A stretch of 64,000 nt of DNA from an uncultured Pseudomonadota bacterium (GTDB lineage Bacteria; Pseudomonadota; Alphaproteobacteria; Rs-D84): assembly GCA_902793435.1 (NCBI GenBank), contig CADBDF010000003.1, forward strand, positions 26,167-90,166, in the 5' to 3' direction. Position numbers and translations under genes: made by a program. The notes beneath the pieces were generated by a model, which worked only from the letters and a program-made list of their open reading frames with translations, was not told the DNA's origin and ran no database searches. Shown here piece after piece: positions 57,917-64,000 of this stretch (the stretch's first letter is position 1; every line of letters begins with the position of its first letter).

Positions 57917-58264
57917 ATGAAGAAGAATAGTATGAAAAACAAGGCTGTTAAATTTGGGATTATCGCAACATTATTACCACATCTGTTTTGTTGCGTATTA
58001 CCGATTGTGTTGGCTATTTTAAGTTTATTCGCACCAGAGGTTGCACATTCATCGTATTTTATGCCAGATTGGTTGGAACCATGGCTGTTTGTGATTTCGG
58101 CTTTGATGTTGGGGTTGTCTTGGGTGTTTGTTATACGCGATTGTCATTGCGATTGTGACATGTGCCACACGCACGAAAAACACACCCCACAAAAAATCAT
58201 TTTATCTGTTATAACGATTTTATTTATTGTTAGTGTTGTTTTGCACATTATCGCACATCATTAA
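57917..58264 (+). CDS. small membrane protein with Cys/His-rich motifs (possibly MerC-like metal-binding)
   Basis: 115 aa with four helices, LPHLFCCVLP and RDCHCDCDMCHTHEKH. Confidence 0.45.
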   Translation: MKKNSMKNKAVKFGIIATLLPHLFCCVLPIVLAILSLFAPEVAHSSYFMPDWLEPWLFVISALMLGLSWVFVIRDCHCDCDMCHTHEKHTPQKIILSVITILFIVSVVLHIIAHH

Positions 58265-58421
58265 CAACGTTCAATTTTCAGTGTGCAAAGTTCAGTTGAT
58301 ACGTCGGTATGTGACCAACAACTTTTTACCACCCTATACAGATGTCAATATGACTTATTTTTTATTTGTTTTATGCCACCGAATATGATAAAATAAATCA
58401 TAAAAGGTAGGAGTGATATTG

Positions 58422-60653
58422 ATGAAAAGATTAGTCGTTGTTTTAAGCAGTTTGTTGGTTTTACCCGCATTTGCCGAGGTTTCACCGTCGCAAATTGATA
58501 CAGAAAATATGTTTTCTGGGGTTGAATTTGACGATGCGACAACTGGTGCGGTCGAAGAAATTGTTGCAGACGAAGAAGTATCTGCACCGGTTGCAAAACC
58601 ACAGGCAAACACATCTGGCCGTATGATTGGAACAGGTACCGCGGGACGTGTGGCGGCGGGTCGTTCGGGCATCAGTCGCGCCAGCAATGTGGCCAGTCCC
58701 AGAACAAATTCTGTGCGGTCACGCAGTATTTCTGTCCGCAGTGCAACGACACCTGTGCGCACAACATCGGTGACAACACGTCGCGCCGACAGCATTGGAA
58801 CCACCCAACGTCAAGGTGTTGCGGCACGTGCATCAACATTGAATTCCACCCAAACAGTTTATAATCCCAATACAACCAGTGGTGTTCGCGCATCTGTGAC
58901 ATCACGTGGCATGCGTGCGGCAACAATTGTTCCCGCCACAACAACAGTTCCAACAGCGGAATCTGCGGTGGAAACAACGGCTGAATTGAACGCAATTAAA
59001 TCTTTGACCGAATATTGCCAAGCACAATATGCGTCTTGTATGGATAATTATTGTAATGTTTTGGACGACAACCAAGGTCGTTGCACATGTTCCAAAAACA
59101 TTTCTAACTATGAAAAGACCGAGGCTGCATTAGCAAACGCGACCGAGGCTTTACAAGATGTCGCACGCAGTATTCAATACATTGGTTTGCCTGCGGATCA
59201 AATTAATACATTATTCACAGAAACCGAGGCAGAATTAACAATGAAAGATTCCAAAGATAATTCTGCAATTCGTTCAAGTTTGGATAAAGTAAAACGTATG
59301 ATTGTCGATGTTAAAACTGGCACGGCATCTGCGGTTGAAACAAACAGTACGATGAATTTTGATTTGTCGGGATTGTTGAATTTTGATATCGGCAGCACAG
59401 GATTTGATTTGTCCAGCTTTATGGGAACAACATCAAACACTAACAGTATTTCAAATCAACGCGGTGAATCATTGTATAAAACAGCGACCGCACGTTGCAA
59501 GGCATCAGTATTGAATTCTTGCACCGCCCAAGGTGTTGATGCCGCGGTCGTGACAAATTCATACGATTTGGAAATCGATAAATCATGTTTGGCATACGAA
59601 CGCGCTTTGACAGATTCAAACGCACAAATGGCACAAACAGTTGCAAACGCCAAAGAAGTTTTGAAAAAGGCACGTTTGATGGTTGCGCAAAACAAAAATT
59701 CTTATGATTTGCGCGGTTGCGTCAGTGCGTTGGAATCATGTATGCAAGACGATTATGTTTGTGGTAACAGTTACGAAAGCTGTCTGGATCCAACCGGCCA
59801 ATATATCGTAAATGGTTCGGTTGTTATCGGCAGTATGCCTGGTAATAATACCGAGGGATCCGATATCAGCTCTACATATTCACATGAAAATTTGTTCAGC
59901 ACATGGACCGCACCTGATGGAACCAAAAATCCATGGGCGACTTCAAATTCTAGTGATCCTAAATACATAACATTGGTTGATTATATCGATGCCACGGTGA
60001 CAAATTCTGCGGCCAAAAACGCTTCGGACAAAATGTCACAATATTTGCAGAACAAAATTGGCTATCATGATAACAGCACAAATAAAGACTTTGGTATGTG
60101 CATGTCTATCTTGAATAAATGTCAAAACTATACATACGATAAAAAAGGCAAATACGACCCAGAAAACGAGGTTGTAAAGCAATTCTTGCAACGTGCATTG
60201 GTTCAAATTAAAACGGCCCAAGATGAATTGTTGGCATCGTATGCAGAAAGTTGCATCAGTGATGTTTCCAGTTGTTTGGCATCCAATAACTATGATTCTG
60301 CAAACCCAGAGGGTACAAAATCCAGAACAGCAATCAATGCTTGTTATTCACAAATCAAAACATGTTTGTCTGTGAATGGTAACATTTATGGTTCTGTGAC
60401 ACCTGCGGTATTGCAAAGTTGGGTGACGGGTAATTATGGTTCGGTTGAAACATATACATCTACGAATGAAATTATCAACGACTGTGCCCAGATTACTGAC
60501 CCCACAGAATGCGGACAAAAATGGGGTTATTGCCTCAGCTCTAATGGTTCACCCAGAACGACATTGTCCGCGGGTATGTGCACATGGACAACAAATTCCA
60601 ACCTGCCTAATGGCGGAACTTGTGGCAGATCAGGCAGTGTGTCATGCAACTAA
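58422..60653 (+). CDS. large secreted Cys-rich hypothetical protein
   Basis: Start at ATG 58422 (GGAG upstream). Signal peptide MKRLVVVLSSLLVLPAFA, then a ~150-aa Ser/Thr/Arg/Val-rich low-complexity region. A Cys-rich body follows (YCQAQYASCMDNYCNVLDDNQGRCTCS). Confidence 0.6.
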   Translation: MKRLVVVLSSLLVLPAFAEVSPSQIDTENMFSGVEFDDATTGAVEEIVADEEVSAPVAKPQANTSGRMIGTGTAGRVAAGRSGISRASNVASPRTNSVRSRSISVRSATTPVRTTSVTTRRADSIGTTQRQGVAARASTLNSTQTVYNPNTTSGVRASVTSRGMRAATIVPATTTVPTAESAVETTAELNAIKSLTEYCQAQYASCMDNYCNVLDDNQGRCTCSKNISNYEKTEAALANATEALQDVARSIQYIGLPADQINTLFTETEAELTMKDSKDNSAIRSSLDKVKRMIVDVKTGTASAVETNSTMNFDLSGLLNFDIGSTGFDLSSFMGTTSNTNSISNQRGESLYKTATARCKASVLNSCTAQGVDAAVVTNSYDLEIDKSCLAYERALTDSNAQMAQTVANAKEVLKKARLMVAQNKNSYDLRGCVSALESCMQDDYVCGNSYESCLDPTGQYIVNGSVVIGSMPGNNTEGSDISSTYSHENLFSTWTAPDGTKNPWATSNSSDPKYITLVDYIDATVTNSAAKNASDKMSQYLQNKIGYHDNSTNKDFGMCMSILNKCQNYTYDKKGKYDPENEVVKQFLQRALVQIKTAQDELLASYAESCISDVSSCLASNNYDSANPEGTKSRTAINACYSQIKTCLSVNGNIYGSVTPAVLQSWVTGNYGSVETYTSTNEIINDCAQITDPTECGQKWGYCLSSNGSPRTTLSAGMCTWTTNSNLPNGGTCGRSGSVSCN

Positions 60654-60751
60654 AATAAAATATTTGCAAAAAAAAATCCCCGAAAAAATCGGGGATTTTT
60701 TTTATTCCGCCCCGGCCAAGGTGACGGCGCAACCTTGGGGTTTGGCAAATA

Positions 60752-61195
60752 TTATATGATTAAATTTGGACGGGTTGCACGCAGGTTTTCCAAAGATTTT
60801 TCTTGTGCCACACGAAAATCCGCCGGATTCCAAATTTGAAAAGAATTACCACGACCGACAAACAATGCCGTATCCCCTATTCCCGCATGCGCCAATAAAT
60901 CCGCCGGGATAATAATGCGTCCGGTCACATCAAATTGCAATGGACGCGCATCTGCAAACAGCATAGCAGATAAATCGTCCAAATTACCGTCAAAAACACC
61001 CATTTTATCGGTTGCAGACGCTAATTGTTCCATACGTGACATAGATAGCCCTTCGATACATTTATTTGTAAAAGAACGGTAAAGAACCACACCAGCAAAT
61101 TTTTCATTATTTAGTGCGGCACGAAAAGAAGCCGGCACAGAAATACGCCCTTTGGTATCCAAACGATTTTCATAAGACGAGAGAAACAATGACAT
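60752..61195 (-). CDS. mraZ: transcriptional regulator MraZ
   Basis: 147 aa with duplicated SpoVT/AbrB-like halves (LDTKGRISVPASFR and FDVTGRIIIPADL). Confidence 0.9.
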   Translation of the reverse strand: MSLFLSSYENRLDTKGRISVPASFRAALNNEKFAGVVLYRSFTNKCIEGLSMSRMEQLASATDKMGVFDGNLDDLSAMLFADARPLQFDVTGRIIIPADLLAHAGIGDTALFVGRGNSFQIWNPADFRVAQEKSLENLRATRPNLII

Positions 61196-61572
61196 TTTAT
61201 CCTTTGAATTTTTTGGGGTTTTACCGGCATCAACCGCACCACGAAAATCAGTCTAGCACGTGATTTTTTATATGTCAATGACATTTCATAATCAATTTAT
61301 GGGATTTTATGGTTTTACAAGACAAATTGCACTTTTTTTAAATAAATTTAAAATATTTTATTTTTTCTCTTGACCTGCGATTCGTTTTTGTTTTAAGATG
61401 TTTGTATAGACAAAAGGCACCCGTCTAAAATTACCAAAATCGCCCGGATTTCTGGTAAAAAACAAACAAAAAACAACCAAACGATGGCCGACTTTTTGTA
61501 AATACGATTGTAAATACAGGAAAAAGTCATCAAAACACACACAACAAACCCAAGAAAGGAGGGACCCACACA

Positions 61573-61905
61573 ATGCAAAAGAATATCAAACAGATAATGA
61601 TTGCACTGGACCAGGTTTTGAGCACAACCGTTTGGGTAAATCAAGATAGACAAATCATTTCATTAAGTGATGAATTGCATGTTGGCAACAACAATGCACC
61701 ACGTTCTATCGAAGATTTGCCACGCGCATCATTGGTCGGCGCATATGTATCATTACAAATTAGAACAGACAATTTTGATGTTGCGGCTGAAACATTGGAA
61801 ACACATGATTTGGCATTAAAGGTCAAAGAAATGGTGTTTGCCGAGGCTAAGAAAATCATGGATAACGATACAGAATCCATGGAACGTCATGTAAAGGCTG
61901 CATAA
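61573..61905 (+). CDS. hypothetical protein
   Basis: 110 aa with AAGGAGGG 8 nt before the ATG and a terminator hairpin at about 61937-61976. No domain recognised. Confidence 0.5.
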   Translation: MQKNIKQIMIALDQVLSTTVWVNQDRQIISLSDELHVGNNNAPRSIEDLPRASLVGAYVSLQIRTDNFDVAAETLETHDLALKVKEMVFAEAKKIMDNDTESMERHVKAA

Positions 61906-61976
61906 AAAAACACAGTTTCCGGATTACCGGAAGGAGAGGAGAAACCGCCAACAAGTAATTGTTGGCGGTTCGTTTT

Positions 61977-62177
61977 TTACCGGTCACGACTGCGCGGCAA
62001 CATTTTTATATTGTTTTCTGGGGTTATTCCCGCAGATTCCATAATTTTTACCAATTTAGCCTGGGACACAACCCAATGCTTTGCGTTTGCAATTTTCTTA
62101 GATTCTTGTTTTTCTGTGCGCGTTTTGTGTGGCGCAGTTTTGTTTTTATGCCATGTAGATTTCTTTTTTTGAATCAT
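61977..62177 (-). CDS. small basic hypothetical protein
   Basis: 66 aa, Lys-rich, with AAAGGACG upstream of the ATG. Coding status uncertain. Confidence 0.3.
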   Translation of the reverse strand: MIQKKKSTWHKNKTAPHKTRTEKQESKKIANAKHWVVSQAKLVKIMESAGITPENNIKMLPRSRDR

Positions 62178-62271
62178 ATTTTCGTCCTTTGGTTATACAT
62201 ATAAATATTATAAATTTTGGGCGCAACATTTTGTATCTGTATGAATTCCCTTTTGACAACAAAAAATACCC

Positions 62272-62543
62272 TTGCATAAAAAATTAATATCGTGATATAA
62301 TAATTTTGTCAGTGGGTGTTCCACTGATGAGGTGTCAAGACCTGCCAATAAAACAGCGTTCGTAATTATGCGAACGAAATACTCCAACCGTAAAATTGGT
62401 TGGAGGGTTGCGAATAATACCCCGACCGGTAAAATAAGCACACAATTTTCTGTTTTAAATTGTCTTGAACCTCCAACCGCCTATGTAATTTGGTGGTTTT
62501 TTTCATTTTGTGCGTAGCACAAAATGAAAAAACAAGGGGGAGT
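62272..62543 (+). promoter_or_regulatory. promoter plus ~235-nt structured leader with terminator/antiterminator alternatives
   Basis: TTGCAT (62272-62277), 18 nt, TATAAT (62296-62301). Four leader segments follow: S1 ctccaacc (62382-62389), S2 ggttggagg (62398-62406), S3 cctccaacc (62470-62478) and S4 ggtggtt (62492-62498). Confidence 0.6.
62475..62503 (+). terminator. intrinsic terminator inside the leader
   Basis: aaccgcc / ggtggtt stem (one G-U), 10-nt loop, then seven T. Lies 40 nt upstream of the start codon. Confidence 0.6.
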
Positions 62544-63776
62544 ATGAAAAAGTTTTTATCATCTTTACTGCTTGCGTTTACGACAATGTGCGCCCTGCCC
62601 GCGTTTGCCGATGATTTGTGCAAAAATTTATTTGATAAAAACACCATAGCAACTGGTGGTTATATTGATAGCACTAGCGGTTCTTGGGTCCCTTCTAATT
62701 ATAATGAAAGTGATTTTATACCTGTGATTCCTGGCGCAACATATGTAAAACAAGGCGATATGTTTGCTGGTGAAAACTCGTGTGTGTTTTATGATGCAAA
62801 TAAAAATTGGATTTCAAGTCGTTATTGGTTTTCTTCTAGGGGTATAGTTACTGTACCATCTGGTGCCGCATATATGCGTATGTTGGTACGTAATGAATTT
62901 TTGAACACAACCCAACTGGAACGTGGTTCCACAGCAACCAGTTATGTTCCGTACAATCCACTCTGTGCGACATGCCAGGGGATAATAAAAACATACGAAT
63001 CGGCGGTGGGGACAGTTTCACAAAACGGCACACCAACCCCAACGAATCCGGTTGAGCCAACTTTTTATCAACAAGGTGATATGATATTACGCAAAGTCGG
63101 CAACTATGCCGACAGTTATGATGCGACAACAGGCAAGATTACACGAAGAGTGGGTGTGAAAGTGTTGAATAGTACGGCTAATTATACGTTTGATGAAGTT
63201 GGTGATTATTATAGAACTACAGTTAGCACCGGTGACTCAAAATATTCTAATGATTCACAGACTGGGCTAAGTACACACTTTCCGTACAGATGGCAATGGA
63301 GTCCTGTGAGGGCGGAAGCATTTCATAATGGGGTAAGTATCACCAGTGCTAGAAATTTATTTTTCTTTGAATTTTTAAAAACAACATTTGAAAGCCCGGA
63401 AGATTGGAAAACATGGCTTGCCGAACAGGAGGCCAATGGAACACCGGTGACGGTTTATTATCCTTTGGCGACGGAAACCACAGAAGACATTGGAACAACA
63501 TATTGCGCACCGAATATAAAAATCGCGACGACGGCATACAATTCGGCGCGATTTAACCCGGTGAAAACAGATTTAGATAGCGCGGTGGCAACTATACGTG
63601 AAATCGTCACAAAAACGATAAATCAAACCGCCGCAATCGCCAGTTTGCAAGCGGACAAGCAGACCCGTCCGGAAGATGCTTGTCCTGCGGGCAAAAAATG
63701 TTTATTGGTTGAAACCGAAGAAAACGGTGTTATTGTTCCACACTGGTTCCCGATAATTGAGGCACCAGAAGAATAA
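62544..63776 (+). CDS. secreted protein with tail-fibre or carbohydrate-binding-module-like features
   Basis: 410 aa from ATG 62544 (AAGGGGGAG upstream). Signal peptide MKKFLSSLLLAFTTMCALPAFA. ...NTTQLERGSTATSYVPY is a phrase common in phage receptor-binding proteins. Confidence 0.6.
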   Translation: MKKFLSSLLLAFTTMCALPAFADDLCKNLFDKNTIATGGYIDSTSGSWVPSNYNESDFIPVIPGATYVKQGDMFAGENSCVFYDANKNWISSRYWFSSRGIVTVPSGAAYMRMLVRNEFLNTTQLERGSTATSYVPYNPLCATCQGIIKTYESAVGTVSQNGTPTPTNPVEPTFYQQGDMILRKVGNYADSYDATTGKITRRVGVKVLNSTANYTFDEVGDYYRTTVSTGDSKYSNDSQTGLSTHFPYRWQWSPVRAEAFHNGVSITSARNLFFFEFLKTTFESPEDWKTWLAEQEANGTPVTVYYPLATETTEDIGTTYCAPNIKIATTAYNSARFNPVKTDLDSAVATIREIVTKTINQTAAIASLQADKQTRPEDACPAGKKCLLVETEENGVIVPHWFPIIEAPEE

Positions 63777-63900
63777 AAAATCACCTATATATTTTGTTTG
63801 GTTAAAAAATTAAAAACAATAAATATTTCAATGCGTTTTTTACTTGCGTATATGTTTTTTATTTTTATACAATCATTATAATAAAAGGGGGAGATATCCT

Positions 63901-64000
63901 GTGCAAGACCGCATAGAACCGCCAATTTTAATGTCGCGTTTAATGACCTTTGTATTGGCCACTTCGTTGGTCGTGCTGGCTGTGTTGGTTTGGACATTGG
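63901..64000 (+). CDS. 5' end of a membrane protein CDS running off the window
   Basis: GTG 63901 preceded by AAGGGGGAG. VQDRIEPPILMSRLMTFVLATSLVVLAVLVWTL contains a TM helix. The antisense ORF 63785-63997 looks spurious. Confidence 0.4.
   Translation, partial: MQDRIEPPILMSRLMTFVLATSLVVLAVLVWTL

Follow-up and report, generated by a model that had tools for sequence, protein, structure and literature searches.

Classical transcription attenuators and riboswitch platforms, such as the trp leader and many riboswitches of Bacillus, choose between competing RNA pairings (1:2, 2:3 and 3:4) and by default terminate transcription just upstream of the gene that they regulate. The subject of this article is a leader RNA at positions 62272 to 62543 of a 64,000-nucleotide (nt) stretch, called the window below, of contig CADBDF010000003.1 from an uncultured bacterium of the order Rs-D84 (assembly GCA_902793435.1). 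It lies ahead of a gene for a 410-amino-acid (aa) protein. Coordinates are those of the window, and all parts of the leader are on the + strand.

The leader has the same four competing segments as the classical systems, namely S1, S2, S3 and the 3' arm of a terminator with its U-tract, and it likewise appears to terminate by default just upstream of its gene. Unlike them, it has neither a conserved leader peptide nor a recognisable aptamer. The whole leader refolds, with the helices b:b' and x:x' swapped for P2' and P6, and both folds co-vary. It is also found in up to 47 copies per 1-Mb genome.

The stretch is a member of an uncatalogued multi-copy family of leader RNAs, about 195-200 nt long. 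The preferred reading, to which a probability of about 75% is given, is a self-contained transcription-attenuation leader that has two mutually exclusive complete folds, is OFF by default and gates the gene behind it. The RNA family and the whole-molecule two-fold design are new, while the mechanism is of a known kind.

Comparison with Described RNAs

The c-di-GMP-I (GEMM) riboswitches are another class with many copies per genome; they precede genes for pili, adhesins, other surface proteins and regulators, often on terminator platforms. Unlike these, the leader has an unrelated architecture and no Rfam match to GEMM or any other riboswitch at E <= 1, and the analysis turned up no sign of a ligand.

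T-box leaders are likewise about 200 nt long, built of many helices, present in many copies per genome and based on a choice between terminator and antiterminator, which in T-boxes is made by binding a macromolecule. Unlike a T-box, the leader has no T-box Rfam match, no specifier loop and no T-box sequence, and the genes behind it are not aminoacyl-tRNA synthetase or amino-acid genes.

A first-pass annotation, made from the letters of the window alone, had been unable to match the upstream part of the RNA to any riboswitch class. No family fits in Rfam 15 (4227 models) either, which at gathering thresholds reports four tRNAs in the whole window and nothing on the leader. When positions 58000-64000 are searched permissively, the best match on the leader is to sRNA-Xcc1 (RF02221), at 62398-62486, with 30.8 bits against a gathering score of 53 bits (E = 0.022). 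The next is mir-3910, on a palindrome behind the terminator, with 23 against 95 bits. Both sRNA-Xcc1 and the leader have a G-rich/C-rich closing stem around two inner hairpins. The likeness leans on an insert in hairpin P5b of the window copy, AAUACCCCGACCGG, whereas most copies have no insert there and a few have unrelated ones, and the match spans the core of the ON state only. Membership in a known RNA family was rejected, no Rfam model fitting and the likeness to sRNA-Xcc1, with a score far under the threshold, resting on this insert.

Architecture of the Leader

The first-pass annotation had described a promoter, several hairpins and a four-segment switch between a terminator and an antiterminator. 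The promoter, the hairpins, S1, S2, S3 and the terminator with its seven T are all where it had placed them. The picture of a four-segment switch is right as to its segments and incomplete as a whole: the entire RNA is involved, through the long-range helices b:b' and x:x', which that description lacked, in the OFF fold and through P2' and P6 in the ON fold. The elements are as follows.

62272..62301, + strand: promoter, with -35 TTGCAT (62272-62277), an 18-nt spacer and -10 TATAAT (62296-62301), read directly
62309..62327, + strand: hairpin P1, TCAGTGG/CCACTGA, present in both folds, with the conserved loop GUGUU
62329..62343, + strand: local hairpin P2' of the ON fold, strand a GAGGU (62329-33) with a' ACCU (62340-43), whose loop holds strand b
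62335..62341, + strand: strand b of the OFF fold, UCAAGAC, with the long-range partner b' GUCUUGA (62462-62468)
62350..62356, + strand: strand x of the OFF fold, AAAACAG, with the long-range partner x' CUGUUUU (62450-62456), which is the loop of P6
62357..62376, + strand: variable hairpin P3, cgttcgta-atta-tgcgaacg, predicted in the fold
62382..62389, + strand: S1, CUCCAACC (ctccaacc), the anti-antiterminator, whose pairing with S2 in the OFF fold is helix P4
62398..62406, + strand: S2, GGUUGGAGG (ggttggagg), the shared strand, with S1 in the OFF fold and S3 in the ON fold
62407..62443, + strand: P5, in both folds, with stem 62407-11 : 62438-43 and the distal hairpin P5b at 62418-31
62412-17 opposite 62432-37, + strand: internal loop of P5, GAAUAA opposite AAAUAA, with conserved letters
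62442..62463, + strand: hairpin P6 of the ON fold, ACAAUU (62442-47) with AAUUGU (62458-63), whose loop is strand x'
62470..62478, + strand: S3, CCUCCAACC (cctccaacc), paired with S2 in the ON fold, its last 4 nt in the terminator stem in the OFF fold
62475..62503, + strand: intrinsic terminator, AACCGCC (62475-81), a 10-nt loop, GGUGGUU (62492-98) and U7 ending at 62503
62536..63776, + strand: Shine-Dalgarno sequence GGGGGAG (62536-62542) and the gene for the 410-aa protein, with ATG at 62544

The promoter also has an extended -10 TG at 62293-62294, which the earlier description had passed over, and transcription probably starts near 62308. A generic promoter scan did not list this promoter because TTGCAT fits TTGACA at only 3 of 6 positions. 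Strands b and b' could be prolonged by pairing GAGGU (62329-33) with ACCUC (62469-73).

The stem-loop and U-tract at 62475-62503 lie upstream of an open reading frame (ORF) on the same strand, as in any intrinsic-terminator attenuator. Beyond this, a conserved antiterminator pairing, S2:S3, overlaps the 5' arm of the terminator and has a competitor, S1:S2. The predicted fold of the 251-nt stretch has an energy of -91.5 kcal/mol; 200 dinucleotide shuffles give -56.2 +/- 4.5, and none of them does as well (z = -7.94). The 410-aa product has a signal peptide and weak PHROG matches to neck proteins, and no Pfam family matched it.

The OFF Fold

For the study of covariation, 107 copies of the leader were aligned to a model built from only two sequences and the OFF structure. 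This fold consists of P1, b:b', x:x', S1:S2, P5 and the terminator. Across the alignment 95.8% of its cells are paired and 42 of its 46 pairs are changed on both sides; no shuffle in 500 does as well, and slid controls reach 38-47% pairing. An unsupervised scan of mutual information also ranks the OFF-fold pairs at the top.

All seven pairs of P1 co-vary, with 98.6% of cells paired, and they are among the pairs with the highest mutual information. In b:b' the seven core pairs co-vary, and every pair type is seen. Mutual information is highest in x:x', where 99.8% of cells are paired and each of the 7 positions shows all four Watson-Crick types. S1:S2 is paired in 96.5% of cells. The stem pairs of P5 co-vary, as does pair 211:216 in P5b, and so does the terminator stem, where pair 324:388 is AU in 52 copies and GC in 39. 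The P5 loop letters GAAUA...GAAUAA are 95-99% conserved and are kept in other alphaproteobacterial families. P3 is found in most copies with differing sequence (about 73-85% of cells paired on an unfitted alignment) and is absent from some (C1a, C6, L022, L034).

The extension of b:b' is weaker, with 23-36 of 106 cells unpaired. One continuous 12-bp helix P2 was rejected on this account, as its five outer pairs, GGGGU with ACCUC, are the weak ones. The G-rich strand a co-varies instead with its local partner a', forming P2'.

The ON Fold

S2:S3 is paired in 97.6% of cells on an alignment that was fitted to the OFF fold, not to the ON fold. The ninth pair of this helix, mostly without a counterpart in S1:S2, is GC in 82 copies, UA in 12 and UG in 5. 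On an alignment not fitted to P2', pair 47:63 of that hairpin is GC in 63 copies, AU in 17 and GU in 11, and independent compensations are seen in L028 (GTGG/CCAC) and L039b (GGAGT/ACTCC). P6 is 93% paired on an alignment that models it, and its first pair is UA in 47 copies and AU in 30. The strongest long-range mutual-information pairs outside the OFF fold are two ON pairs, 197:314 and 47:63.

Most telling are the other families, in which S1, S2 and S3 change together and the pairing is kept. Examples of such co-varying sets are given below.

S1 CCCAACC, S2 GGTTGGGGT, S3 ACCCCAACC (also written GGTTGGGG/CCCCAACC/CCCAACC)
S1 TCCAGT, S2 GCTGGAAG, S3 CTTCCAGC
S1 CTCTCCGAT, S2 GTCGGGGAG, S3 CTCTCCGAC
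S1 TTTCAGTC, S2 GACTGGAAG, S3 CTTCCAGTC
S1 CTCCAACC, S2 GGTTGGAAG, S3 CTTCCAACC

Even without an alignment, S1/S2/S3 triples of 8 bp or more can be located in 81 of the 107 copies; among 60 shuffles, 3 contain one. The first-pass proposal that S1:S2 with the terminator competes with S2:S3 as antiterminator, which was to be checked by covariation among relatives, is strongly supported by the joint changes of the three segments and by the covariation of the extra S2:S3 pair and the terminator stem.

The two folds exclude each other. Both x:x' and b:b' are crossed by S2:S3, which also uses up the first four bases of the terminator stem. P6 and x:x' are mutually exclusive because the linking strands, y-x' and x'-y', are only about 2 and 1 nt long; a pseudoknot in which both coexist is ruled out by these linkers. 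Two mutually exclusive complete folds are thereby supported by the pairing record of 107 copies.

The covariation also bears on the quite improbable idea that the leader does not switch and is a constitutive 5' element, such as a leaky terminator, an insulator or a stabiliser, with S2:S3 a by-product of the similarity of S1 and S3. Such an element would fit the prediction that OFF is the minimum-free-energy fold in most copies, and the switch has no known trigger. However, S2:S3 keeps nine pairs through several independent changes, even where the GGGG strand a does not follow. A by-product would also not explain the co-varying pair that mostly has no S1:S2 counterpart, or the covariation of P2' and P6, which exist in the ON fold alone.

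Another possibility is that S2 serves as a Shine-Dalgarno sequence. In leader-peptide attenuation, GGAGG in S2 would direct translation of an ORF in P5 (GUG AAU AUA UUG AAU AAG, MNILNK...), and translation through S3 and the terminator would prevent termination. GTG or TTG stands at the start position in 56 of 105 copies, and the frame is open past S3 in 39 of 105, against 12 and 4 for the other frames. The latter contrast is an unfair test, since the other two frames are closed by stops inside the conserved loop. In 47% of copies there is no start codon (31 have GCG instead), the ORF runs from start codon to terminator in only about 20 of 105, and the stops are scattered. The spacing from Shine-Dalgarno to start is a mere 3-4 nt or so, and the window copy has another frame (UUG CGA AUA..., 9 codons). 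The MNILNK peptide was rejected because neither start codon, frame nor stop position is conserved among the 105 copies, in agreement with the first-pass remark that there is no obvious leader peptide, and this mode of control is very improbable.

The Proposed Switch

Folding energies favour OFF. Before the 3' arm of the terminator is made, which is the decision point, the window copy is predicted at -63.0 kcal/mol in the OFF fold and -51.5 in the ON fold. Over 106 copies, ON minus OFF has a median of +4.4 kcal/mol at the decision point, where OFF is favoured in 81 copies, and of +10.4 kcal/mol for the full-length RNA, where OFF is favoured in 95. S1:S2 also forms first in the course of transcription. 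The modelled default is OFF, that is, termination. OFF being favoured both kinetically and thermodynamically, expression would therefore need an activating input.

The preferred mechanism would run as follows. An RNA of some 195 nt, able to take either fold, would start from a strong promoter. In the OFF fold, b:b' and x:x' would clamp the junction of P3, the S1:S2 hairpin and P5. S3 would be left free for the terminator, and polymerase would stop at the U-tract at 62503, 40 nt before the start codon. In the ON fold, the 5' part would collapse into P2' and S1 would be released. S2:S3 would then close a three-way junction with P5 and P6, removing the first four bases of the terminator stem, and polymerase would read into the gene.

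The activating input would act by stabilising the ON fold or by blocking S1, x or b. Most likely a single factor, a protein or a small ligand, serves all copies, and the candidate recognition sites are the internal loop GAAUAA/GAAUAA of P5 and the loop of P1.

Several points weigh against this mechanism. The alignments are fitted to covariance models built from the family, which inflates the paired percentages for the fitted OFF structure, and the copies are related by descent, so that the shuffle controls overstate significance. P2' and P6 are less supported than the OFF helices, with 75% and 74% of cells paired on an unfitted alignment. By prediction the ON fold lies 4-14 kcal/mol above OFF, and without a factor it might never form. 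The profile searches brought up no antiterminator protein domain of a known kind: neither Hfq nor CAT_RBD is matched. Finally, tandem arrays in which each leader has its own promoter (L040, L039, G381) fit a purely cis-acting role less neatly.

Copies and Their Genes

BLAST of the stretch against its own 898-kb genome finds a second copy, with 66% identity, in front of a paralogue of the gene for the 410-aa protein. With word searches and covariance models, the number rises to seven in this genome of about 0.9 Mb. All seven lie just upstream of an ORF in the same orientation. Two of these ORFs encode paralogous secreted proteins, two encode paralogous small XRE-type helix-turn-helix (HTH) proteins, one encodes an outer-membrane beta-barrel protein and two encode proteins without assigned function.

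Matches are found in 32 of 41 related genomes, and congeners have 2-47 copies per 0.9 Mb or so. A pattern scan of the genomes of 185,579 species gives more than 118 stretches. Nearly all are in metagenome-assembled genomes (MAGs) from rumen and gut that are named Candidatus Enterousia, uncultured Alphaproteobacteria or "Rickettsiales". Other families of the order Rs-D84 also have the leader, in copies that match less well but are clearly homologous. More such copies are found in nine genomes of six further alphaproteobacterial families, ahead of lipoprotein, outer-membrane and pilin-like genes, and in four viral contigs of IMG/VR.

One predicted viral contig, L212:9231-13164 (IMGVR_UViG_3300024269_000278), has the leader ahead of a gene for a 316-aa secreted protein, with neighbouring genes that resemble those for a phospholipase-D-like nuclease and a DNA methyltransferase. 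Phage or prophage DNA is therefore another carrier of the leader. Two copies (L052 and L060) come from a MAG labelled Muribaculaceae (CAZJGX01), whose contigs with the leader were probably misbinned and belong to Enterousia.

Most copies have a promoter of their own. A promoter-like site is present in 96 of 106, with a -10 element that ends 2-3 nt before the modelled start of the RNA, and P1 is therefore at the RNA 5' end. The commonest -10 element is TATAAT, and TGn is found in 33 copies. At the other end, 99 of 106 have at least five U in the 8 nt after the terminator stem. A same-strand Shine-Dalgarno sequence and start codon follow in 96 of 107 copies, mostly 14-40 nt past the U-tract (median about 24 nt).

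The products encoded behind the leaders are signal-peptide, fibre-like, outer-membrane, lipoprotein and pilin-like proteins, or small XRE-type HTH proteins. Roughly half have a signal peptide by a crude heuristic, and small XRE-type HTH proteins (Pfam HTH_31 or HTH_3) account for about a quarter. Present in 7-47 copies per genome, the leader would control an entire regulon of surface and secreted proteins and small XRE-type regulators. In other alphaproteobacterial families, at L218:101-420 and L223:501-692 (- strand), the product starts with a type IV pilin-like prepilin signature, GRSMVEMLGVLAVIGVL.

Leaders can also stand in head-to-tail arrays of two to at least four (L040:847-1665, L039:1501-1884, L066:6898-7296 and G381:C1:71253-71916), each leader having its own promoter and terminator. 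The leaders in such arrays might be serial attenuators or decoy RNAs.

The arrays and the self-sufficiency of each copy invite another explanation, namely that the terminated transcript of about 195 nt is itself functional as a trans-acting small RNA (sRNA), through an anti-Shine-Dalgarno seed CCUCC or as a protein decoy, and that its position before genes is incidental. S3 and S1 do resemble the anti-Shine-Dalgarno sequence. The tight spacing of 96 of 107 copies ahead of a Shine-Dalgarno sequence and start codon would be unexpected for independent sRNA genes, and even the L040 array stops about 15 nt before a gene for a 127-aa XRE-type protein. The S2:S3 covariation would have no role in a simple sRNA, and the genome gives no match to an Hfq profile. 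There is only a slim chance that the family consists of such RNAs.

The Search for the Trigger

Leaders that respond to protein antitermination (BglG/SacY RAT, ANTAR, PyrR, HutP) would be alike if a factor stabilises the pairing that overlaps the 5' arm of the terminator, one factor serving many leaders. Unlike RAT and ANTAR sites, the leader is far larger and more elaborate and lacks a pair of hexaloop hairpins; no dual hexaloop motif was seen in the family consensus. In the genome of the window, profile searches gave no match to CAT_RBD (PF03123, BglG/SacY-type), with controls matched in four genomes, and none to Hfq (PF17209), with controls matched in five. ANTAR (PF03861) gave no match in this genome and none in the control genomes either.

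Among the unpaired letters, conservation is highest in the P1 loop, GYGWUU, and in the symmetric internal loop of P5, GAAUAA/GAAUAA, which resembles tandem UAA/GAN-type loops. These letters are kept in the genus and in several other families. Family f3 of the order is an exception: its P5 loop differs, and its P1 loop is GNRA-like. This pattern may slightly favour a co-evolving macromolecular partner over a universal metabolite.

A small-molecule riboswitch would be a special case of the preferred reading. A metabolite or second messenger would bind the P5 loop and the junction and thereby stabilise the ON fold. The number of copies before surface-protein and pilin-like genes recalls the c-di-GMP riboswitches, and GAAUAA/GAAUAA and GYGWUU are conserved even in other alphaproteobacterial families. 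Against this, the differing loops of family f3 leave few universal unpaired letters, unlike known aptamers, and the downstream genes include no transporter or metabolic gene to hint at a ligand. A small-molecule riboswitch in this sense is rather unlikely.

A bolder form of the attenuation model makes the leader a sensor of one master signal that governs an entire surface-protein regulon in gut Alphaproteobacteria obligately dependent on partners. The signal could be a small molecule of a partner or host, a second messenger or a new dedicated RNA-binding antiterminator. Read at the P5 and P1 loops, it would switch as many as 47 leaders together from the clamped OFF fold to the ON fold, the orphan tandem copies would buffer the factor as decoys, and the family would be a new class of riboswitch or antiterminator that works by refolding the whole molecule. 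This picture is tentative, and the odds are clearly against its being right in full.

The P1 loop with its closing base, UGUUC (62316-62321), is complementary to GAAUA in the P5 loop (62412-62416). The genus consensus has GUGUUC with GAAUAU, six pairs including two G-U, both invariant. Mutual information gave no signal for such a tertiary contact of the P1 loop; UGUUC and GAAUA are invariant, so covariation is uninformative here.

A trans-acting partner carrying a word like S2 was considered and rejected: all occurrences of GGTTGGAG in the genome except four lie within leaders, and the two of these four that were inspected (C4, C9) have sequence that reads like coding.

Between Terminator and Gene

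Directly behind the terminator of the window copy lies a short inverted repeat.

62504..62526, + strand: palindrome cattttgtgc-gta-gcacaaaatg, perfect, with 10-bp arms and a 3-nt centre, specific to the window copy

The first-pass annotation had described this palindrome as abutting the ribosome-binding site and had suggested a second control point, as an operator or a translational hairpin. The repeat is present and perfect, and it ends 9 nt before the Shine-Dalgarno sequence. The suggested function is not supported. The palindrome occurs once in its genome and is absent from the other leader copies, and its only close match in 121 congeners is inside a coding region of another species, so that a recurrent operator was rejected. 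It also coincides with a site at which paralogues of the downstream gene have an insert of about 88 nt.

The downstream gene has two paralogues in the same genome. The one on C8 is behind another leader copy, and the one on C1, at 26.7 kb, retains of a leader only the 3' arm of the terminator. Both (G000:C8:13975-14095 and G000:C1:26780-26900, - strand) have a near-identical GC-rich segment of about 88 nt (ccagaattccgcccc...gggggttat) between GTGCGT and AG(G/C)CAAA, exactly at the centre of the window's palindrome (62497-62543 region). The flanks are the same as in the window copy (...TTTTGTGCGT and AG(G/C)CAAA...). A relative, L186, has a mini-version of the palindrome, CATTCGCAATG. The position of the segment looks like a site of insertion, excision or inversion. 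The palindrome is best taken as a junction or hairpin specific to this copy, possibly the unoccupied site of a segment that can insert or invert.

As a hairpin, the palindrome has a fold energy of -10.3 kcal/mol (z = -4.5). Together with the flanking runs U7 and A6, it could form a hairpin of about 16 bp (62498-62532, -17.4 kcal/mol) in the read-through RNA, just 5' of the Shine-Dalgarno sequence.

Unrelated GC-rich inserts of 50-130 nt are seen between the terminator and the ribosome-binding site in L110, L119, L075, L072 and L202. The interval is apparently a favoured place for the insertion of small elements.

In the window copy, the Shine-Dalgarno sequence is a further possible partner for CCUCC of S3. 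The idea that this pairing adds a second level of control throughout the family was rejected: its predicted probability exceeds 0.5 in only 25 of 88 copies, including that of the window, and it is inseparable from the generic complementarity of Shine-Dalgarno and anti-Shine-Dalgarno sequences.

Neighbouring Features

A divergent ORF at 61977-62177 (- strand) shares a 367-nt intergenic region with the leader promoter. It encodes 66 aa, very basic (MIQKKKSTWHKNKTAPHK...), with neither a Pfam nor a PHROG match.

At 61943-61970 and 60652-60731 there is a strong terminator, bidirectional in look (AACCGCCAACAAGTAATTGTTGGCGGTT). The weak Rfam matches to the rimP and Phe leaders found there are the terminator between the gene for a 746-aa Cys-rich secreted protein and mraZ.

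Significance

Candidatus Enterousia and the order Rs-D84 have reduced genomes and are thought to depend on partner cells (PMC12306168). Riboswitches are unmentioned in that study.

These bacteria, like the rest of Rs-D84, are uncultured inhabitants of gut and rumen with genomes under 1 Mb, and little is known of their regulation. Here a single RNA design stands, up to once per 20 kb, before the genes likeliest to mediate contact with a partner, those for fibre-like adhesins, outer-membrane proteins, lipoproteins and pilin-like proteins, and before XRE-type regulators.

The family is an unusually clean natural case in which both conformations of a switch are written in the covariation record. 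It is also an orphan sensor, and its trigger could reveal the signal to which Enterousia-type bacteria respond.

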